Shown: positions 589-15,472, numbered from the stretch's first letter. The stretch is DNA of 15,472 nt from Nitrososphaeraceae archaeon (GCA_035250975.1 DATFEP010000077.1:1-15472); one strand, 5' to 3'. Translations and numbers: made by a program. Notes: a model not told the origin generated them from the letters alone.

Positions 589-1572
589 TTAATGATGTTC
601 TTTTTGTAAGGTAGCAATTGTTGCCAATACCATTTTTGTAACTGAAGTTAAATAAATCCAATTTATTAAATCTGGTGTATCAGTTGCAGAATGATAATGA
701 GGATTTTCATCTTCAGCGGATCCATCATAGGCACCAATTACAACATGTCCTTTGGCTTCAAAATGTTCATAATCACTACCATAAATATGTTTTAACAAAG
801 GGGGCTGTAGATCTGTGTACATTGACATTTTGACCATCAAATTTCCACATTCAATTGAATCATTATCATTTTGTTTTACTTTATTATATCGGCATTTGTC
901 ATCCTTATCATCATAATTATCTACTTCGACTACTACTATTCCAGCTCCTAGAAAAGGATTTCCTATCATGTCAAGATTAATTAGTCGAAATATCTGGATG
1001 CCATTTTCTTTGACATATTGAGCATAATGTTCTGATCCCAAAAGACCTCGTTCTTCACCAGAAAATAGAACAAATTGGATACCATATTCCATCTGTGGTT
1101 GGTTATAGAGTATACGCGCAATTTCTAAAATTGCGCTTACCCCACTTGCATTATCATTTGCGCCTGGAGCTCTTGAAATAGCATCTTCCAAATTAACTTT
1201 TAAAATTGTATCATAATGAGCACAAATCAAAATGTATTTGTTATCATTACCTTCTTTAGTACATATAACATTTTTGAGATTATAATTACAATTATCAATA
1301 TATGCCTTGTAATTATCAAAATAAACATCATGATATCCTATATTTTTGAATTCATCCAATAGCCAATCAGCAGCCTTATTAATCTGTCTAGACTTACTAT
1401 GTCTATTATGAAACGAGCTTAGATAATTTAATTTTGTTTTTATATTATCCAATGAAAGTTGATCTAATAATGATCCAATGTCATTATCTAATTTTATTTC
1501 AGACTTTTGCATGTCAATTGTAATTGTTTTCATGTCTCCGGTTCTTTTATCAATTTTAAAATTTTTACACAT
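589..1572 (-). CDS. M28 family Zn-metallopeptidase (aminopeptidase-like)
   Basis: Motifs CAHYDT, PGANDNASG, FSGEERGLLGS, INLDMIG, GSD and HYHSATD. No evident signal peptide. The start could instead be the downstream Met (MKTITID). Confidence 0.93.
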   Translation of the reverse strand: MCKNFKIDKRTGDMKTITIDMQKSEIKLDNDIGSLLDQLSLDNIKTKLNYLSSFHNRHSKSRQINKAADWLLDEFKNIGYHDVYFDNYKAYIDNCNYNLKNVICTKEGNDNKYILICAHYDTILKVNLEDAISRAPGANDNASGVSAILEIARILYNQPQMEYGIQFVLFSGEERGLLGSEHYAQYVKENGIQIFRLINLDMIGNPFLGAGIVVVEVDNYDDKDDKCRYNKVKQNDNDSIECGNLMVKMSMYTDLQPPLLKHIYGSDYEHFEAKGHVVIGAYDGSAEDENPHYHSATDTPDLINWIYLTSVTKMVLATIATLQKEHH

Positions 1573-1974: not shown

Positions 1975-2409
1975 ATGGTAGAAATGACTAAAGATGAAAT
2001 CCGAAATTTTCTTTTAAAAGGCACTTTTACAGGGAAACTCGGGACAATTAACAAGAATGGAACACCACATGTGGTTCCTGTTTGGTATACTTTAGATGAC
2101 GAGGATAATATTTTATTTAATACAGATAATAGTTCAGTAAAAGCAAAGAATATTCAACGTGACAATCGAGTCCGTTTATGTGTAGACGATCAGGTTCCTC
2201 TTTTCTCATTTGTTACTATTGATGGTATTGCAGAATCAATTAGTAATGAACCAACCGAAGTTTACAAGTGGGCTAAAATTATCGCGGCTAGGTATATGGG
2301 TAATGATAAAGCAGCAGAGTATGGCAGGAGAAATAGTTCAGAAGGTGAACTATTGATAAAAATAAAACCAACCAAAGTTATTGGTCAAAAAGATATAGCA
2401 GGATGGTAA
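1975..2409 (+). CDS. PPOX-class (pyridoxamine 5'-phosphate oxidase-like) probable F420-dependent oxidoreductase
   Basis: LGTINKNGTPHVVPVWY, KAKNIQRDNRVRLCVDD, VTIDGIA and IKIKP: the split-barrel FMN/F420-binding family pattern; 144 aa. Confidence 0.92.
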   Translation: MVEMTKDEIRNFLLKGTFTGKLGTINKNGTPHVVPVWYTLDDEDNILFNTDNSSVKAKNIQRDNRVRLCVDDQVPLFSFVTIDGIAESISNEPTEVYKWAKIIAARYMGNDKAAEYGRRNSSEGELLIKIKPTKVIGQKDIAGW

Positions 2410-5583: not shown

Positions 5584-5737
5584 TGTTACTCTTGGATTTT
5601 CCCATAAATAAATAAACCGTTCGTTTATTGAAAGTATTCTCTTCTACCTTTTTTAACATAGTTTCAATTTTTGGCGCATTGATATATCTTCTTCTTGTAT
5701 TCTTACGAGAGATTTGTATATGAACGCCGATATGATA

Positions 5738-5782
5738 GGGCTCGGAGGATAGTCAACTAATTTTGACACAATTTTGTAGTTT
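5738..5782 (+). repeat. Repeat family A, copy A3
   Basis: GGGCTCGGAGGATAGTCAACTAATTTTGACACAATTTTGTAGTTT; ends 16 bp from the GT2 stop codon. Confidence 0.95.
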
Positions 5783-5798
5783 TAAAAATAAAAATTAT

Positions 5799-7031
5799 TT
5801 ATATCGTTCTCTGATTTTCCTTAATCGTATATTTTCTGTCCTTCCAATTAACAGTGTGTTTATATGCAGAATTAATTATGGATGTAAAAAATACAATAAA
5901 TACAAAAGTACATGCTAATGGAAAGGCTACTGAATAGAAGATATTTTGAACTATTAAATATTTTAAATGCAAAATACTTGTTATTATCAACAATAAAATT
6001 GATGTTATGGCTAAAGATAGCAAAACTATATTTAGATTGGTCATATAATCTGTTATATGTTCTTGCTGTAACACCATGCTCATAATTGAGAATGCCAATA
6101 CAATTAGAGGTAGTAAGAGTAAAAGAAATGTTGCAATCACCATAAAACATGCCTTTATTTTTTCTCTTTTGTATATGGAAATCATTAATCTTCTAAGTCC
6201 ATGCCAAAGAGTAGAAGGGTCTCTTGCCCATAAAGCCTCTATGTGGTCTTTGCCATTAACTACTTTAAGTTTAAAGCCTTTCTCTTTTACTTTTCTTCCT
6301 AGTGCACCATCTTCTACAATTTCTTCCCTTACTGCTTTATGAGTACCAATTACCTCATAGGTTCTTCGTGTTATTATAAAAAAACTGCCAAAGAGGTATC
6401 CTATCTTGCTATTGGGATTGTTTGCTTTTAGCGCGGAGTATCTAGCCAAAGAAAGAGTCCAAAGTATAGGTAGAGTAATCTTTGTCCAAAAATCAGTTGT
6501 CGATATTTTGGGCATTGCAGTAAGAACATCAAGTTCTTCAGCTAAAAAATGATTCACAGCTAAAGAGATAGAGGTTAAAGAATGGATAGTGTCCGCATCA
6601 GTAAAAAGAAAGAGATCGCCTGTTGATTTAAGATATCCCTGATGGCAAGCCCAATTCTTTCCTGTCCAGTCATCTGGCTTTGGTTCTGCATTTACATACA
6701 CAACTCTAGAATTTGTTGTGCTATAATTCTTAATTATTTCAGCTGTTCTATCAGATGAAGAATCATTAATTACAACTATTTCATAATTGGAATAGTCTTG
6801 CTCAATTAAAGTTTTAAGACATTTTTCTATGTATTTTTCCTCATTTCTTGCAGGAACAATTATGCTCACCTTAGGAAAAACGATGTTTTTTTTAGATGCT
6901 ATAAAAGATTGTAGTTTTGGTACCTGTATTAGAGATTTTATAGTATAAACAAGAAAGTATACCCATGAAAAGAAAACACTGGAAATTATAGCAATTAAAG
7001 TTATTAATACAGCAAAATTATATTCTACCAA
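5799..7031 (-). CDS. Membrane-bound family 2 glycosyltransferase (HpnB/CrtQ-like lipid glycosyltransferase subgroup)
   Basis: VSIIVPARNEE, VINDSSSD, WTGKNWAC, FTDADT (DXD) and IVEDGALG. One N-terminal and three C-terminal TM segments; C-terminal VNWKDRKY. Confidence 0.92.
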   Translation of the reverse strand: MVEYNFAVLITLIAIISSVFFSWVYFLVYTIKSLIQVPKLQSFIASKKNIVFPKVSIIVPARNEEKYIEKCLKTLIEQDYSNYEIVVINDSSSDRTAEIIKNYSTTNSRVVYVNAEPKPDDWTGKNWACHQGYLKSTGDLFLFTDADTIHSLTSISLAVNHFLAEELDVLTAMPKISTTDFWTKITLPILWTLSLARYSALKANNPNSKIGYLFGSFFIITRRTYEVIGTHKAVREEIVEDGALGRKVKEKGFKLKVVNGKDHIEALWARDPSTLWHGLRRLMISIYKREKIKACFMVIATFLLLLLPLIVLAFSIMSMVLQQEHITDYMTNLNIVLLSLAITSILLLIITSILHLKYLIVQNIFYSVAFPLACTFVFIVFFTSIINSAYKHTVNWKDRKYTIKENQRTI

Positions 7032-7164: not shown

Positions 7165-7206
7165 GGGATCGGAGGGCTTCGAGTATGACATGTAGTTGGG
7201 ATCGGT
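7165..7206 (+). repeat. Repeat family B, copy B2
   Basis: GGGATCGGAGGGCTTCGAGTATGACATGTAGTTGGGATCGGT; 38/42 identical to 12140. Contains TTGGGATCGG twice, 33 bp apart. Confidence 0.95.
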
Positions 7207-7652
7207 AAACTAGTATTTATTAATTTGGTAACTTATTTCAAATCTTTACGTACTGTTCCAATAGAATCTTAGGAAAGATAATAAAAGGATTTGAAACTTA
7301 TATCTTGTTTTCTATATTTTTATATCTTATATCCTAATTTGTTCTGTTATTATTATGTAATTATGTTCAACAACTATTCAGTAATATCATATTGATTATA
7401 CTACATAGAATTTTTCCTATGTATTAAAAAAATTGAATATTAATAACTTGAGATTTTATCAAATAAATAAATAATAATCATCAATGACGGGGAATAGATT
7501 CTGTTCAGGTCTATCCATGGGTTTCATTAGATAAAAATCAATCTTTGTCTTATTGATAGATCTTATAGCAGCATATATGGCTGAGTATATCAAATTTTTA
7601 TATCATATATATCGATTAGTACAGATGTGCAAATGGATGAACGAATAAGTCT

Positions 7653-7658
7653 GGAGGT
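7653..7658 (+). promoter_or_regulatory. Shine-Dalgarno sequence of the LLM gene
   Basis: GGAGGT 6 nt before the GTG start at 7665. Confidence 0.7.
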
Positions 7659-7664
7659 AAAAAT

Positions 7665-8648
7665 GTGACACAAGAAGATTTAGGTTTGCAAGTTGCCCCA
7701 ATATTCAGACCAACCCGAGAACGCGTTGGACTCATCGTCAATGGGGCAAATGCAGCAGCAGCAATAAAAACAATTGCTGCAGCCGAAGCTGCTGGTGTCC
7801 AGCAAATCTGGATGGCTCAGCCTCCTTGGTCCCCTGACGTACTGACAACACTTGCAGCAGCAGCAATAAAAACATCTAGAGTACATTTAGGAACGTCTAT
7901 TGTACCAACATATCCACGACACCCGATAGTCCTAGCACAGCAGGCTCTTTCGCTCTATGATATTGCACCAGGTCGATTGCGCCTGGGAATTGGCCCTAGC
8001 CATCGTGCTATTATAGAGGATATGTATGGCTTACCCCAGACAAAACCCTTGGTCCATTTACGCGAATATGTGAAAGTGCTGCATTCCGCTCTCTGGGATG
8101 GGAAGGTAGATCATCATGGAGAGTTCTTTAACATTGTAATCCAATTCCCACGTACAGCTCAAATTCCAGTGTTAATTTCAACATTAGGAAAAAAGGCGTT
8201 TCAATTGGCTGGAGAAATTGCTGATGGAGCTCTTTCATGGATGTGTCCTGTTCCGTATTTGCTCGATACAGGAATTCCGTCATTACGTAAAGCAGCAACT
8301 GCTAATGGACGCTCAAACCCTCCTCCATTGGTAGCACATGTTTTGGTAGCACTTTGCGAAGATCATGATTCTGTAATGGTGGCAGGCCATCAAATGATGG
8401 ACATGTATGCGAAATTTCCTTTTTATGTTAAAATGTTTGCTGCTGCAGGCTTCCCACTAACATCCGATAAGAAGGTGACTGATGATCTTGTTAATAATAT
8501 GATAATCTCTGGTCATGAAGCCACAGCGGCTGCATCGTTTACTAAACTTCTGACTGCAGGTTTGGATGAACTTATGGTAAGCCTGGTACCTATTGTAGAT
8601 GAGGACTATGAGCAGACCCAACTTATGCGTTTGATCGGCCAGCTGTAA
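7665..8648 (+). CDS. LLM-class (luciferase-like) flavin/F420-dependent oxidoreductase
   Basis: AEAAGVQQIW, TSRVHLGTSIVPTYPRHP, GRLRLGIGPSH and LAGEIADG motifs. Visibly higher GC than its neighbours. Confidence 0.94.
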   Translation: MTQEDLGLQVAPIFRPTRERVGLIVNGANAAAAIKTIAAAEAAGVQQIWMAQPPWSPDVLTTLAAAAIKTSRVHLGTSIVPTYPRHPIVLAQQALSLYDIAPGRLRLGIGPSHRAIIEDMYGLPQTKPLVHLREYVKVLHSALWDGKVDHHGEFFNIVIQFPRTAQIPVLISTLGKKAFQLAGEIADGALSWMCPVPYLLDTGIPSLRKAATANGRSNPPPLVAHVLVALCEDHDSVMVAGHQMMDMYAKFPFYVKMFAAAGFPLTSDKKVTDDLVNNMIISGHEATAAASFTKLLTAGLDELMVSLVPIVDEDYEQTQLMRLIGQL

Positions 8649-8709: not shown

Positions 8710-8774
8710 AAACTTGGGGGGCTTAAAGCATGACATTTAATTGGGATCGGTTTTCTGTTATTTAATTTTACTTT
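8710..8774 (+). repeat. Repeat family B, copy B3
   Basis: AAACTTGGGGGGCTTAAAGCATGACATTTAATTGGGATCGGTTTTCTGTTATTTAATTTTACTTT aligns ungapped with 12140-12204 (32/42 in the core, plus a near-identical 23-nt T-rich tail). Confidence 0.88.
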
Positions 8775-10181: not shown

Positions 10182-10495
10182 GAATAAGATATAGATAGAT
10201 AGAATCAGGTGTAAAAGATATTTTAAGTCATCCTTAAAGCCATTTTTCTTATCTAAATCTCCATAATTCTTCCAAAATTGAATGTAGATCTTTTCATGCA
10301 AGGTCAATTAATTGTGAATTGAAATGCCTGCGTAACACGACAATCAGTTTATAATATTTATTAAAGATTATTGAATATATCTTAATATACAGAACAAATA
10401 AGGTTTTTCCTTAAGCATAGATTGTTTGATGCATATTTCATAGACTCCTCCAATATTATCTTCCATTTCCTAGTATATGAGCCCAATTGGTAGAC

Positions 10496-10540
10496 GGGCC
10501 ACGAGGTGTATCAACTGATTTTGACACAATTTTGTAGTTC
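10496..10540 (+). repeat. Repeat family A, copy A4
   Basis: GGGCCACGAGGTGTATCAACTGATTTTGACACAATTTTGTAGTTC; 10511-10544 is identical over 34 bp to 15348-15381. Confidence 0.95.
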
Positions 10541-10709
10541 TATATCAAAAATATCCACAATTTGTTCTTACATTCTAACAAAATACCATTGATATATCGT
10601 TCTTGATATAGTGTAGAATTGATGAAAAAGAATAGTAAATTAGAAAATTTTACATTACTCCTTAACTATTAAAAATTTTTAATGTGATACCTATAATTCT
10701 ATTTAATTA

Positions 10710-12014
10710 ATGTATAGTATAAACAGACAGGTTCCACTTTATCCTCTATTATTGATTAATTTTATTGGAACTCTAGGTTTTAGTATTGTTTTACCTTTTT
10801 TGATATTTTTAGTCATAGATTTTGGAGGGAATGCTATAGTTTATGGAATACTAGCTGCAGTATATCCTGCATTTCAACTAATAGGATCTCCAATTCTAGG
10901 AAGATGGTCTGATATTTATGGCCGAAAAAAAGTTCTTCTTGTCAGTCATGGAGGAACATTAATTGGTTGGATATTTTTTCTTTTTGCATTGTTTTTGCCT
11001 GTTGAAAATCTTTTTATCATTAATTCTGCTCTTTTTGGAACTATTGTTATAACTCTTCCCTTACTTGTATTATTTTTTGCACGTTCTATTGATGGAATAA
11101 CAGGTGGAAATATCTCTGTGGCCAATGCCTATCTTGCAGATATTTCATCAGATGAAAACAGAAGTAAAAACTTTGGTAAAATGGCAATATCTTCGAATCT
11201 TGGTTTTATTGTTGGTCCCGCATTAGCAGGAATTTTAGGTGCAACTATTTATCAAGAAATATTACCTGTCTTGGCTGCTCTATTTCTCTCTCTAATTACC
11301 TTAATAGTCATAGGTTTCGCTTTAAAAGAATCAAAGCCTCAATTGGCTGTTACGAAACAAATTCCGGAAAAAGAAAGTGTTAGAAAAGTTTTTGCACATG
11401 AATGCAAAGAATGCTACCAGCCTGAAAATCCAAAAAAACTTAAATTTCAAGATGTTTTCAAGTTAAAAAATATTCCATTCCTAATTTCCTTATACTTTTT
11501 TATTTTCCTTGGATTTAACATATTTTATACATCTTTTCCAATTCATGCAGTGAATGATTTAAAATGGTCAGTAACAGAACTTGGAATATTTTATGCAGTA
11601 CTAAGTGGAATCATGGTTTTGGTACAAGGTCCGATTTTGCATAAGTCTTTAAAAAAATTCTCTGAAGAAAAACTAGTTATAATTGGAAGTATTATTCTAG
11701 GTACAAATTTTATTTTATTTATATCAAATGATGATAGCTTAATTTATGTCGCTGCAATTCTGTTTGCAGTTGGGAATGGGCTGATGTGGCCATCTTTTAT
11801 GTCAATACTTTCAAAGATTTCTGGCAATATATATCAAGGATTCATACAAGGAGTTGCAAGTAGTTTTGGGAGTCTAGCAAGTATTGTTGGACTAACAATA
11901 GGAGGATTTTTGTATAATTTAATTGGAGGATTTACTTTTCTAATTAGTGCTGGAATCATATTTGCAATTTTTATTATGTCTTTTAGACTATTGAAAATGA
12001 AAGTGTTTAACTAA
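10710..12014 (+). CDS. MFS transporter, DHA1/TetA-like drug:H+ antiporter family
   Basis: Motif A (LGRWSDIYGRKKVL), motif B region (ARSIDGITGGNISVANAYLAD) and motif C (LGFIVGPALAG); 12 or more hydrophobic segments. Confidence 0.94.
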   Translation: MYSINRQVPLYPLLLINFIGTLGFSIVLPFLIFLVIDFGGNAIVYGILAAVYPAFQLIGSPILGRWSDIYGRKKVLLVSHGGTLIGWIFFLFALFLPVENLFIINSALFGTIVITLPLLVLFFARSIDGITGGNISVANAYLADISSDENRSKNFGKMAISSNLGFIVGPALAGILGATIYQEILPVLAALFLSLITLIVIGFALKESKPQLAVTKQIPEKESVRKVFAHECKECYQPENPKKLKFQDVFKLKNIPFLISLYFFIFLGFNIFYTSFPIHAVNDLKWSVTELGIFYAVLSGIMVLVQGPILHKSLKKFSEEKLVIIGSIILGTNFILFISNDDSLIYVAAILFAVGNGLMWPSFMSILSKISGNIYQGFIQGVASSFGSLASIVGLTIGGFLYNLIGGFTFLISAGIIFAIFIMSFRLLKMKVFN

Positions 12015-12139
12015 CTAATTATAAAAAATAAAAAAGGTCTATCAAAATAGGATATTATATTTTAAATATAGTCTAAATTAAGTCATGTTTACCATTTTTT
12101 CTATTCTTTGAAAAATGTTATTGAACCCTACTAGTATAT

Positions 12140-12186
12140 GGACTCGGAGGGCTTCGAGAATGACATGCAGTTGGGATCGGTTTTCT
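12140..12186 (+). repeat. Repeat family B, copy B4 (best tRNA-3'-like core)
   Basis: GGACTCGGAGGGCTTCGAGAATGACATGCAGTTGGGATCGGTTTTCT. Lies between the convergent MFS and TFB genes, 16 bp from the TFB stop. Confidence 0.95.
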
Positions 12187-12202
12187 CTTATTTTATTTTA
12201 CT

Positions 12203-13204
12203 TTATTTTATCGATTTTAAATTCAAGGTATAAACTATATCATTATACCATTTTCTTAAAACTGAATCAGATATTCCTGTTGATTTTGCAAATTCTCTCT
12301 GTGTTTTTGTTTTTCCTTTTTTATCGTTATAATCCTCATCAATTTTACAGGCAACATATACGGTTGAAGCAGCAATTGCTATTGGATTTTTTCCTTCGTG
12401 AATCTTATTTCGTTTTACATCTGCCATGATTTGTATTGCTTTACGTTCTGTACTCTCGTTTAAATTCATTTTATTTGTTATTTTTATAATACATTTCATT
12501 GGATCTATAACAGGTACGGTCTCTAAACCAAGTTCAACAACAAGAATTCTATAATAATGTGAAATAGTTCTTATCTTTACATTAGTTGCTTTTGAAATCT
12601 CTTTTAGTGTTGTGGGTCTTTCAAATTCTTTACATGCTAAATAAATTGAAGCAGAAACTATTCCATCTATTGTTCTTCCACGTACAATTCCCAATGACTG
12701 TGCTTTTTTATAAAAGTAAAATGATTTTTTTATTATCGCATCTGAAATACCAAGTTTGTATTTTAATTTATTCAGTTGTTCAAAAGCATATTTTAAATTT
12801 CTGTCTGTTGCATTATTATATCTTGTTCTTTTCTCCAATACTCTCAATTTATTTATAATGTTCTCCATATCTGTTCCAATTTTTCTTCCTGTAGCATCCA
12901 CATTAGTTCTTCCTATGATTGTAGGCGATTGAATATTATAGGGTAGAATATTGCTTGTATTGTGAGACATTAACTCATTATTAATTGCCTGTGCAGTACC
13001 GTTAACATTGTTTATCTCTTCATAAATTAGTGGTGAAGGACATTCATCATTCTTTTCATCAGATAAAACTTTACCGCATTTAACGCAAATTACTTCTCTC
13101 GTTTCAGGATCGGATATAGTTTTATAATTATCATTACAAATTAAACATAATGATCTTTTATCATTAATATTCTCAATGTCATTCTCATCATTGTTATAAC
13201 TCAA
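12203..13204 (-). CDS. tfb: Transcription initiation factor IIB (TFB) paralogue
   Basis: Zn ribbon CLIC...DPETREVICVKCGKV; two cyclin repeats (DRNLKYAF, VRGRTIDGIVSASIYLACK...TLKEI, GKNPIAIAASTVYVAC, TQREFA). Confidence 0.95.
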   Translation of the reverse strand: MSYNNDENDIENINDKRSLCLICNDNYKTISDPETREVICVKCGKVLSDEKNDECPSPLIYEEINNVNGTAQAINNELMSHNTSNILPYNIQSPTIIGRTNVDATGRKIGTDMENIINKLRVLEKRTRYNNATDRNLKYAFEQLNKLKYKLGISDAIIKKSFYFYKKAQSLGIVRGRTIDGIVSASIYLACKEFERPTTLKEISKATNVKIRTISHYYRILVVELGLETVPVIDPMKCIIKITNKMNLNESTERKAIQIMADVKRNKIHEGKNPIAIAASTVYVACKIDEDYNDKKGKTKTQREFAKSTGISDSVLRKWYNDIVYTLNLKSIK

Positions 13205-13811
13205 TATTATTTAATACGTATAAAGATAATTTATGTATTTAATAGGTTATAAAAAATAACATTTTTTAATCAGATTTGGTTAACTGATAATGTAGATAAA
13301 TTAAATATAACACAGACAATGGTATTATATAATATCTCCCACTCATGTAAAGCAATATAGGATATCTGATGGGAGAAAATGTTTTCTTTTTCGTTGATGC
13401 GTAAATTTTTGGTTTTAGGTAAGTGCCATGAGATAAAATGAATTCTTTAAATATTAAGCATCTTTTAAAATTTTTTCTTATCAATATCACCAATTGTTCT
13501 TCATTCTTATTTCAGAAAGGCATAATGTTTTTCCATTTGGAAATAAATCATTTTTCTAGTATTGCATAAAACCTTGTAGGATTGTCTTTACTTCCATTTC
13601 TGGATTCTGTAATTTCCTTTACTGCATAAACCTGTTCTTTTACTATGTAAATCGAATCCCAATAGGAGCAAGTGTTCTATTTAATTTCTCTTTAAGATTT
13701 CCAAGAAATCATTTTCAAGTTATTGATATCAATTCTTCATTGTAGCAAAACTATTTTCGTTGAACCATAATTGAACTATCAACTTTAATAGTTCTTGATT
13801 ATTTTCAAAAA

Positions 13812-14119
13812 TTACCTTGTTACCGTTTCACAATCTACGGTTTTTCTGTCTCCTTCCAGATTGTTAAAGTTTACTGCGATATCATTTCCTGGTCCACATA
13901 TATAAAAATCAGCGCCTGAATTACCTATCAAGGTATCATCACCATTCGCTCCTATCAGTTTATCATCACCTTTGCCTCCCTTAATTATATCGTTTCCATC
14001 TCCACCATCAAGAAAATCATCTCCTGCTCCCCCATACAATTTATCGTTTCCAGAATCACCTATGAGCTCATCTTCACCTTCCTTTCCCTTTAATATATCA
14101 TACCCAATCCGCCGAACAA
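13812..14119 (-). pseudogene. 5'-truncated, frameshifted hemolysin-type Ca-binding repeat gene
   Basis: The RTX nonapeptides continue upstream of the called ORF (DILKGKEGEDELIGDSGNDKLYGGAGDD). One more repeat (LFGGLG) lies across a 1-nt deletion at about 14100. No signal peptide. Same C-terminal cap (CGPGND...GD...DCE) as 4915-5583. Confidence 0.8.
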
Positions 14120-14120
14120 A

Positions 14121-15143
14121 ACTGCTGTTATTTCAGCAATTATTGCAATTATTTCTATTTTCCTTGCAAATAGGAATAGTAAAGAACTCCAGAAATCAGA
14201 TTTTAATTATCAAAATAAGATAAAAGAATTAGAATTAAAACACTCTGAGAGACTAAAGAAACTTGAATCAGAATTAACAAGTGAAAGAGATGAAGTTGCA
14301 AGACGAGAATATGAATATGATGCCAGAAAGAGACTTTATCAAGAGTATGAACCATTATTGTTCCAATTCAATGAATTAGCAGAAAATGCGTTGAGACGTA
14401 TTATTGCGTTAGCAAGAGATTCTAGAGAAGGAAGATTCGAAGTAGGTAAAGGATGGCTTTCTGGTTCGGGATATTATTTTGACAGTACAATATATCGATT
14501 ATTTGTCCCATTTGCAATATTCAATCTTATGCAGAGAAAGTTAACCATGTTCGATCTAAAATTAGACCCATTTTTTACTCATCAGTATTTACTAATCAAA
14601 TTATTGTATCATACATTTAGTCACGATATAAGACTAGCAAATATTAAACCAAAAATTAACAATTATGATCCCAATCTAATAATGAAAGAGGATCCCAATT
14701 CTAAACAACAAGGAATTTACATAGGAATTGTTGATAATCTGGCTAACGAATTCATCATAAAAGATGGCGAAAACCTGAGAATAATGACCTTCGGAGAATT
14801 TTCTAAACTTTGCTCAGATTCTTCAAAATTTATAACTTTTGAGGCGATATCTAAAATATTCAAAGATTTTCATCCAGAAAGTCATCCAGTTCTATGGAGA
14901 ATATTAATGGTTCAAGCATATATCTATAGAATAATATTAATTGACTATGATAAACATTACAAAAAAGAGAGTGTAGACATTAAAGAGATATTATCTTCAA
15001 TACCCATGAATTGGCGGTTAAAGTTTGATTGGAGACAAGAAAATGAAAGAGAAAATATACCTGATAAATCTGTATTTGATGATCCTTTTAATGTAGCAGA
15101 GATCTATTTACGTAAAAGAATAGAAGAATTAAAAATTACATAA
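14121..15143 (+). CDS. Hypothetical membrane-anchored protein with coiled coil; true 5' end apparently lost (track start 14358 is internal)
   Basis: The frame is open from 14094. Upstream of 14358 it encodes TAVISAIIAIISIFLANRNSKELQK...ELELKHSERLKKLESELTSERDEVARREYEYDARKRLYQEYEPLL (TM helix plus coiled coil) but has no ATG/GTG/TTG. Confidence 0.75.
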   Translation, partial: TAVISAIIAIISIFLANRNSKELQKSDFNYQNKIKELELKHSERLKKLESELTSERDEVARREYEYDARKRLYQEYEPLLFQFNELAENALRRIIALARDSREGRFEVGKGWLSGSGYYFDSTIYRLFVPFAIFNLMQRKLTMFDLKLDPFFTHQYLLIKLLYHTFSHDIRLANIKPKINNYDPNLIMKEDPNSKQQGIYIGIVDNLANEFIIKDGENLRIMTFGEFSKLCSDSSKFITFEAISKIFKDFHPESHPVLWRILMVQAYIYRIILIDYDKHYKKESVDIKEILSSIPMNWRLKFDWRQENERENIPDKSVFDDPFNVAEIYLRKRIEELKIT

Positions 15144-15332
15144 ACACATGCAGTCATCATCTTACAATTGAAATTTTGAGATTTTTATTTTAATTATTGA
15201 AAAGGTAGCAGAGATAGCATGGTAGCGCTCCCTATAGAACGTATGTCAAAAAAAGTAATTTAATATAAAATAATTATGAAATCATTATAGATATTATAAT
15301 TTCTACAAGATATTACAGATACCACATAGTAA

Positions 15333-15377
15333 GTACACGGAGGATAGTCAACTGATTTTGACACAATTTTGTAGTTC
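15333..15377 (+). repeat. Repeat family A, copy A5
   Basis: GTACACGGAGGATAGTCAACTGATTTTGACACAATTTTGTAGTTC; 40/45 identical to 5738. Confidence 0.95.
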
Positions 15378-15472
15378 TATAGTTACAAAAAAAATAAATT
15401 ATTTCTTCATTTTCCAATTTTATTATGTACATCATCATATCTTTTTAGACCTACAATTTTTACGGTATTAAA

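Follow-up and report, generated by a model that had tools for sequence, protein, structure and literature searches.

Attachment-like repeats matching the 3' end of tRNA-Arg(TCG) bound small gene cassettes in a Nitrososphaeraceae archaeon

Known integration systems and the Nitrososphaeraceae array

Integrated elements of Thaumarchaeota, according to the main text of Krupovic et al. (2019; PMC6563490), use a tyrosine recombinase to target the 3'-distal part of tRNA genes at attachment (att) sites with a median length of 17 bp, and elements with a tyrosine recombinase form arrays through the reuse of one site. Here we describe an array of repeats on a 15,472-bp stretch of DNA, the complete contig C11 of a Nitrososphaeraceae assembly of 2.49 Mb and 30.6% G+C (G000), which we refer to as the window. 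Nine co-oriented composite sites in the window bound eight units of 647 to 3238 bp, and the repeat under study (12139-12157, minus strand) reads as the T-loop (positions 55-60), the 3' strand of the T-stem, the 3' strand of the acceptor stem and the discriminator of tRNA-Arg(TCG). On the plus strand each site consists of a left arm, an 11-bp core with the consensus GGGCTCGGAGG and a right arm of type A, B or C. In the orientation of the tRNA the order is a P-type arm (A, B or C), the core CCTCCGAGCCC, which corresponds to tRNA positions 62-72, and a P'-type arm. The repeats are very probably att sites, left by integrative elements whose tyrosine recombinase targets the tRNA-Arg(TCG) 3' end and which accumulated as an array by serial integration. 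The mechanism is classical tRNA-targeting integration, and the island is of a known kind, anchored at a tRNA and built by serial integration, in an unusually dense, integron-like form. The island is notable for the close packing of its sites, for small units that have both arms and no integrase, for three interchangeable types of arm and for its size.

The array shares with the described thaumarchaeal elements the tRNA 3'-distal target, the tyrosine recombinase, the short att sequence (here 11-18 bp) and the arrangement in arrays. It differs from the elements presented in the main text of that survey in its 26-29 sites per genome at a median spacing of 2.8 kb, in units that mostly have no integrase and in its three P-type arms, as well as in the extent of the island, which reaches at least 214 kb in G078, a congener that is 99% complete and has a 1.8-Mb contig. 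The genus name Nitrosocosmicus does not occur in the main text of PMC6563490, and a literature search, for that paper limited to its main text, found no description of such an array in Nitrososphaeraceae.

Tycheposon islands of Prochlorococcus are described as lying beside specific tRNA genes, where new elements push older ones deeper into the island, and as containing scattered fragmented integrases and partial tRNAs, plug-in cassette cargo and one associated inversion (bioRxiv 10.1101/2020.12.28.424599). By this description, accretion on the tRNA side, integrase fragments, cassette-like cargo and an inversion are common to both systems. However, tycheposons have a bacterial host, replication modules and larger cargo, whereas the units here are far smaller and nearly every junction has both arms. 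The integrase-bearing unit of G078 carries a SIR2_2-domain gene and an uncharacterised open reading frame (ORF), and no replication module was seen in it. In streptococci, integrative and conjugative elements (ICE), integrative and mobilisable elements (IME) and cis-mobilisable elements (CIME) accrete at one att site, and the integrase of a neighbour can excise units that have none of their own. Tandem site-specific accretion and integrase-less, att-flanked units are found here as well, but the streptococcal systems have bacterial hosts, few units per locus rather than dozens, and conjugative transfer, for which nothing was found here. The array also differs from archaeal integrases of the SSV type, termed 'suicidal' because attP lies inside the integrase gene, which is split on integration, as PMC7253208 describes them: the integrase ORF of G078, here called IntA, is whole (436 aa) when integrated and begins 59 nt after the tRNA.

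Chromosomal integrons ('super-integrons') and the archaeal integrons of Ghaly et al. (10.1101/2022.02.06.479319) likewise form long co-oriented arrays of small recombinase-free cassettes whose content differs between close relatives, and in our array it is the tRNA-side part that is most variable. It is possible to imagine the window as part of a true integron, in which attC hairpins are recombined by an IntI-type integrase at attI, since small and often single-gene cassettes without an integrase lie between co-oriented repeats and cassette order is shuffled between genomes. However, three sites folded as single-stranded DNA on both strands reached only -4.4 to -6.8 kcal/mol, with z scores of -1.43 to +0.11 against 200 shuffles each, and folds no more stable than shuffles rule out a reading as attC-like hairpins. 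Moreover, what stays constant in the repeat is a tRNA 3' end, and in G078 a tRNA gene stands where the array begins. By NCBIfam, the integrase does not belong to the IntI type, IntA scoring 28.3 bits against the 220-bit cut-off of NF040815 (XerA/integron integrase) and IntB, a second recombinase described below, having no NCBIfam match. Finally, cargo genes face both directions. The integron explanation is close to refuted, and we give it next to no credence.

The repeat sites and the 3' end of tRNA-Arg(TCG)

An intron-less tRNA-Arg(TCG) gene of G078 (G078:C10:1147352-1147426; called by ARAGORN, 54 bits with Rfam) ends, ahead of its discriminator, in the 18 nt TCGAAGCCCTCCGAGCCC, which are exactly the repeat consensus. 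The identity between consensus and tRNA 3' end covers 18 nt in B and C sites, where it extends back to T-loop position 55, and 11 nt in A sites. When 25 genomes of the genus were searched for this gene by its anticodon arm, seven had it, and its 3' end was TCGAAGCCCTCCGAGCCC in six of these seven congeners, with G as the discriminator in five and A in one. The first-pass annotation of the window had taken the shared core for a tRNA 3' end of att-like character, and this has been borne out by direct observation of the congener tRNAs, of the integrases adjoining them, of integrase stumps inside the arrays and of a presence/absence difference bounded by the core. The tRNA with the repeat's end and a nearby integrase that it had proposed to look for exists in six of the seven congeners, with the integrase directly downstream in four. 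Its assignment of a Val/Ile/Ala-like isotype gives way to Arg(TCG), as called by ARAGORN on the congener gene, and its caveat that the G at position 60 is non-canonical falls away, because the two Arg tRNAs of the lineage, TCT in the own genome and TCG in the relatives, share this T-loop. The former is an intron-bearing tRNA-Arg(TCT) at C16:19268-19358 of G000, found with Rfam and missed by ARAGORN, which has the same T-loop and T-stem and differs at 1 of the 18 nt. It lies in the middle of the 95-kb contig C16, with no sites nearby.

Two variants of the target gene deserve mention. The tRNA-Arg(TCG) of the congener G086 has perfectly paired stems and an unrelated downstream flank (L158:1476-1550), while the island-bearing gene of G078 (L032:7352-7426) has, according to cmscan, a non-standard U:U pair in the T-stem that the G086 variant lacks. 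We considered whether this pair might be an integration scar in a hybrid attL. However, the other differences from the G086 variant are compensated, and so the U:U may simply be native.

A tyrosine recombinase gene follows the tRNA in several congeners. In G078 the L1-type left arm lies between the tRNA and IntA, which is encoded at L032:7485-8795 and matches phrog_1 'integrase' with an E value of 4.5e-14; a PDB sequence search with IntA returned nothing relevant. The first unit of this island measures 4.6 kb and comprises the tRNA core, L1, IntA, the uncharacterised ORF, the SIR2_2-domain gene, a C arm and the core at 1152044. The SIR2_2-domain protein (L032:10377-11744, E 3.7e-10) may be cargo of a defence type. 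Behind the same tRNA, G103 has an IntA homologue with 59% identity and G114 the same gene start, while G037 has an unrelated 417-aa recombinase, IntB (phrog_1 1.4e-7), with no BLASTP similarity to IntA (E 0.48); the downstream arm that follows the tRNA in the congener G106 is the same as in G037. N-terminal stumps of IntA are also found beside L1 arms within the arrays, in the expected orientation, at 1327188 and 1328854 in G078, at 60464 and 137706 in the congener G048, and at C32 14527-14724 and C27 4862-4647 in G000. Behind the 3' ends of other tRNAs of G000 lie IntA-like fragments with 49% and 45% identity (C18, about 2042-2210; C20, about 1031-1200), and here too the GGGTTCATATA motif and the 10-nt spacer are present. 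Thus the left arm characterises the whole family of elements, whose members have different tRNA targets.

The anatomy of the sites can be read in either orientation. On the plus strand there are a few types of left arm, which carry GAGCCC, GAACCC or AGAGCC 10-12 nt before the core, and the B and C right arms continue after the core with GCTTCGA, which is why the minus strand reads on into a T-loop. In the orientation of the tRNA, the P'-type arm is a 10-nt spacer followed by the motif GGGYTC(ATATAC). The A and B arms have the motif AACTACA..TGTCA in common and are set apart by a 6-nt insert, and this motif and GGGYTCATATAC are the conserved motifs of the arms. The repeat at 12139-12157, whose reverse complement is TCGAAGCCCTCCGAGTCCA as first reported, is composed of the core at 12140-12150 and the first 7 nt of the B arm, and it is 1 nt off the tRNA of the congeners; its core is the private variant GGACTCGGAGG of the family consensus. 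On its left stands an L3-type arm (P'-type; 12111-12139, minus strand), a 10-nt spacer and then GGGTTC in tRNA orientation, which travels with the upstream cassette and is paired with it again in G048 at 97582-97652. On its right stands the B-type arm (P-type; 12151-12180, minus strand), which adds the 7 nt of tRNA identity into the T-loop.

The other copies reported in the first pass were likewise read correctly: the second B copy, at 7165-7182, is GGGATCGGAGGGCTTCGA on the plus strand with a T before it, and TCGAAGCCCTCCGATCCC-A on the minus strand, and at 471-481 and 5738-5748 the A copies retain no more than GGGCTCGGAGG. When the 18-mer was searched with up to three mismatches, the window gave two matches, whereas none of 200 dinucleotide shuffles gave any; the shorter CTCGGAGG gave three matches where 0.05 were expected, and none of 200 shuffles reached three. 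The repeat is real and far beyond chance. The count of seven or eight sites with two arm types was too low, since nine sites and three arm types (A, B and C) are present once the sites with a decayed core and the C site at 2500, missing from the earlier list, are included.

All nine sites have their tRNA orientation on the minus strand. From left to right they begin with A1 (471-514), in which the core at 471-481 is followed by an A arm, and A2 (1853-1896), in which the core is decayed, differing at 5 of 11 positions, and the A arm is intact, with 1 mismatch in 21. The C site (2500-2544) joins the core variant GGGTTCTGAGG to a C arm. A3 (5738-5781) has the exact core and an A arm, preceded by an L2-type left arm at 5715-5737, and B1 (7165-7205; B2 in the first-pass annotation) has the core GGGATCGGAGG and a B arm. 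A further B site at about 8710-8750 has a decayed core and has kept its B arm, with 2 mismatches in 21. A4 (10496-10539) has a core with three changes and an A arm, and its L1-type left arm at 10471-10495 shows 96.6% identity over 29 nt to the sequence after the G078 tRNA. Beyond site 12140, A5 (15333-15376) retains only CGGAGG of the core (positions 6-11) together with an A arm.

A census of filtered sites in the whole of G000, 130.6 kb of G048 and 255 kb of G078 found 83 sites (29, 28 and 26, respectively), with an A arm in 44, a B arm in 26 and a C arm in 13. The median spacing was 2791 bp over 67 intervals, of which 24 were at most 2 kb and 25 were 2-5 kb long.

Probable exchange at the core, and the cassettes

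The cassette upstream of site 12140 (10507-12150), which carries a major facilitator superfamily (MFS) transporter gene (10710-12014, plus strand), permits a comparison of the same junction in two genomes. Its stretch 10513-12150 is 95% identical to G048 96008-97652, and in G048 the terminal core of the cassette passes without a gap into an A arm and then the cassette found at 15344-15472 of the window. A unit of 3193 bp (12151-15343), made up of a B arm, a gene for a transcription factor B (TFB) paralogue, an RTX-repeat fragment, uncharacterised ORFs, a left arm and a core, is absent from G048 at this junction, where the left flank matches up to 12150 and the right flank from 15338 on; site A5 is the right junction of the unit. 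The only sequence common to both junctions of the unit is CGGAGG. Assembled contigs from public sequencing runs (X2 to X5) were compared with the window as well. The unrelated soil run X2 holds both forms, one contig bridging 11923-15370 and another joining 12150 to 15348, with a short side of 30 nt and four letters in between, and a contig of X3 bridges 11496-15377.

It could be argued that the sites look like a tRNA end by coincidence, being copies of a miniature transposon or of some dispersed element with a regulatory or RNA role, and that the differences between genomes arise by homologous recombination between repeats. Arms of 30-45 nt could support some homologous exchange, and the arms of about nine sites are better conserved than their core, as if the arm had a function of its own. 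However, the 3193-bp unit has a B arm on its left, an A arm on its right and different left arms, and the common CGGAGG is too short for homologous recombination. Nor would such an element account for integrase stumps at a fixed distance and orientation beside the L1 arm, or for the co-orientation of nine out of nine sites in the window and of all sites in each array segment. No Rfam family matches the sites at E values up to 5, a search of the window that gave five sub-threshold snoRNA or miRNA matches, none at a site. We consider such an origin highly improbable, and we return to the sites as att sites.

The two sides of the sites recombine freely. Among 78 sites with full 450-nt flanks in the three genomes, 17 pairs of sites matched in the left (upstream) flank only, 16 in the right (downstream) flank only and 3 in both; left and right arms assort independently. 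One upstream cassette with its core occurs joined to A, B or C arms in different contexts, and thus a single crossover zone within the shared 11 bp explains all types. The PNPOx cassette keeps its core variant GGGTTCTGAGG in four contexts, followed by a C arm in the window (2500), in G048 and in G078, and by a B arm in G048. Since the variant is kept whichever arm follows, core positions 1-7 travel with the upstream unit. Taken together with site 15333, which keeps positions 6-11, this argues for an exchange zone in the arm-side part of the core, and we infer that strand exchange occurs at about CCTCCG (tRNA orientation), in the 3' strand of the T-stem and the start of the acceptor.

This bears on the earlier proposal that two recombination specificities feed one array, with B (and C) sites as products of a crossover in the T-loop and A sites as products of a crossover at the acceptor 3' end of the same tRNA. 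Such a scheme would fit the difference in tRNA identity, 18 nt in B and C arms versus 11 in A arms, and the presence of the unrelated IntA and IntB families behind the same tRNA in different congeners. In compact cases, moreover, a C arm closes the L1 unit that carries the integrase (G078 1147415-1152044 and 1328929-1327266; G000 C32 28359-29134), so that other lineages of elements may be the source of the A and B arms. However, the MFS cassette with its core is followed by an A arm in one genome and by a B arm in another, so that exchange between A and B sites does occur inside the 11 bp they share. The common motif AACTACA..TGTCA, with the 6-nt insert as the difference, makes the A and B arms look like two versions of a single arm, and neither arm type could be linked to an integrase. 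Because the exchange zone is common to A, B and C sites, one specificity suffices for the array. Two specificities seem unlikely to us, though the two integrase families at the tRNA leave room for them.

The cargo genes are mutually unrelated and face both directions, with three of the Pfam-supported genes in the window on the plus strand and six on the minus strand. Besides the MFS transporter they include an M28 peptidase gene (589-1572, minus strand), a PNPOx-family gene (1975-2409, plus strand) that fills the 647-bp single-gene cassette at 1853-2499, a family-2 glycosyltransferase gene (5799-7031, minus strand), RTX-repeat proteins, and a luciferase-like (F420/flavin-dependent) oxidoreductase gene (7665-8648, plus strand), the sole cargo between two B sites. 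The TFB (TFIIB) paralogue gene (12203-13204, minus strand) is cargo of the 3193-bp unit. The TFB cassette is 96% identical to G078 1287141-1288258, with homology that begins at the core; a TFB paralogue is here carried as mobile cargo. Within the RTX-repeat ORF there is a 27-nt tandem repeat at 13924-13977, and contigs of X2 and X3 have one additional 27-nt unit behind 14015.

The oxidoreductase cassette has some features of its own. Its segment 7631-8654 is inverted in G048 (G048:C11:114172-115192; 87.9% identity, opposite strand), while the flanking B-type sites are not flipped, and positions 7501-8500 of the window have 42-43% G+C versus 30.6% for the genome. A foreign origin of this 43% G+C cassette was considered and is unsupported: apart from the window's own protein, the 119 homologues listed are 75-88% identical, and the three among them that are named by organism are Nitrososphaeraceae.

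The tRNA end of the array and the meaning of the island

If elements integrate serially at the tRNA, each new unit would push the older ones outward, and the outcome would be a co-oriented array in which every unit is bounded by cores. Later recombination between cores would insert, delete, reshuffle and invert units. The window would then be an internal stretch of the array, with eight small units of which none has an integrase, and site 12140 would be the junction that holds the 3193-bp unit with the TFB paralogue. The integrase-less units would have been moved in trans by an enzyme of the IntA type.

The first-pass annotation had predicted an intact minus-strand tRNA past the right edge of the window. 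The orientation of the sites puts the tRNA to the right. However, the window makes up an entire contig from the interior of the array, and the tRNA can thus not be placed just beyond its edge; the proximal end probably lies on contig C27 instead. Over its final 60 nt, C27 matches with 92% identity the part of G078 that begins with the last 7 nt of the tRNA and extends through L1. The IntA frame on C27 comes to a stop after 74 aa, and the contig breaks inside the core. An A site and a B site, oriented as in the window, are found on it too. Because it ends with an integrase stump, L1 and the first bases of the core, C27 appears to be the tRNA-proximal end of the array in the own genome. The last cassette of the window continues into further cassettes in G048.

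In G078 the tRNA (1147352-1147426) is followed by co-oriented sites at 1152044, 1153319, 1157955 and 1169956, and sites span from the tRNA (1147415) to at least 1361879. Within this span a segment of about 137 kb (G078:C10, about 1217385-1354217) is inverted relative to the tRNA, with sites on either side of it in the tRNA's orientation, and reversing it by one inversion between sites would yield a single island of about 214 kb with all sites co-oriented. When the arrays are oriented like the window, G078 and G048 are syntenic in the left part (92-95% identity) and reshuffled in the right part, so the most variable part is the right side, where the orientation of the sites puts the tRNA.

Several observations weigh against the view that the window belongs to an array of att sites anchored at tRNA-Arg(TCG). 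Most directly, neither ARAGORN nor Rfam finds a tRNA in the window, and no integrase remnant was found there, a tblastn search with IntA at E values up to 10 giving three noise matches of 15-22 aa. Across the own genome, ARAGORN reports 22 tRNAs, missing intron-bearing genes, and the Rfam tRNA model gives 33 matches, and neither finds a tRNA with the repeat's end; the own assembly also has no full-length IntA. As both the body of tRNA-Arg(TCG) and a full IntA are absent from it, the linkage to the tRNA rests on the relatives and on C27. Around the arrays first examined, no tRNA reached the Rfam gathering score in stretches of 120 kb in G078 or 121.6 kb in G048; the G078 tRNA lies outside that stretch and in the other orientation, and those cassettes that G078 has in common with the window lie in a part of the island that runs opposite to the tRNA, 100-170 kb away from it. 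A second recognisable site is absent behind the tRNAs of G103 (over 20 kb), G037 (7.7 kb) and G114 (4.6 kb). The assignment of IntA has soft spots, in that its match to PF00589 has an E value of 7e-6 but scores 26.3 bits, just below the cut-off of 27.1, and its Arg, Lys, Arg-His, Trp and Tyr positions, which are present and conserved in the G103 homologue, were identified by eye. Excision has left no accepted trace either. Joints that go back from 12145 to 10504 (X2, X3 and X4) and from 5774 to 1925 (X5) in public contigs were considered as excised circles and rejected, because their short sides comprise only 30-47 nt of conserved arm, which may come from other cassettes with the same arm. Finally, in about nine sites 3-6 of the 11 core positions are changed, next to an arm with only 0-2 changes in 21; examples in G000 are at 1853 and 15333 of the window and at C36 10526 (minus strand). 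If dead att sites simply decayed neutrally, intact arms beside decayed cores would not be expected, and the arms at such sites seem to be kept for a reason of their own.

The sites are largely a feature of the genus. The A arm was found in 8 of 10 other genomes of the genus and, across 17 further genera of the family, in 3 of 90 genomes, while a reversed-pattern control gave 0. Exact 21-mers of the A arm also occur in public records titled Nitrososphaeraceae or Nitrososphaerales archaeon. In addition, an 8-kb piece (L097; 27.5% G+C) of a public contig of 483,732 bp, which bears the title 'uncultured beta proteobacterium', has two complete sites 1.6 kb apart, each with left arm, core and A arm, and the taxonomic title of this record is probably wrong. 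A single 21-mer match in a contig titled Bacilli (L089) has no core and looks like chance.

A more far-reaching scenario is that parts of the tRNA-att machinery have given rise, in the soil ammonia oxidisers of this genus, to an integron-like cassette system, in which dozens of integrase-less and often single-gene units with full pairs of arms are captured, shuffled and exchanged at tRNA-Arg(TCG) by a tyrosine recombinase acting in trans and the arms are under selection for mobility. We offer this tentatively and as somewhat less probable than its negation. If it is true, each excised cassette would carry a full attP, selection for mobility would explain why arms outlast the core at decayed sites, and an island of more than 200 kb would hold a large share of the flexible genes, among them those for transporters, glycosyltransferases, oxidoreductases and TFB paralogues.

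A hypervariable cassette island of this kind breaks metagenome assemblies and hides the tRNA gene, which accounts for the fragmentation of these metagenome-assembled genomes (MAGs) at this locus. For the Nitrososphaeraceae, globally important soil nitrifiers for which genetic tools are lacking, the array provides a concrete and testable recombination system, with tRNA-Arg(TCG) as attB, three P-type arms, conserved P'-type arms and an integrase family, that might in principle be used for site-specific insertion. Should the cassettes indeed move in trans, they would represent a second, independently evolved 'gene cassette platform' besides integrons, and they would show how niche genes circulate among soil ammonia oxidisers.

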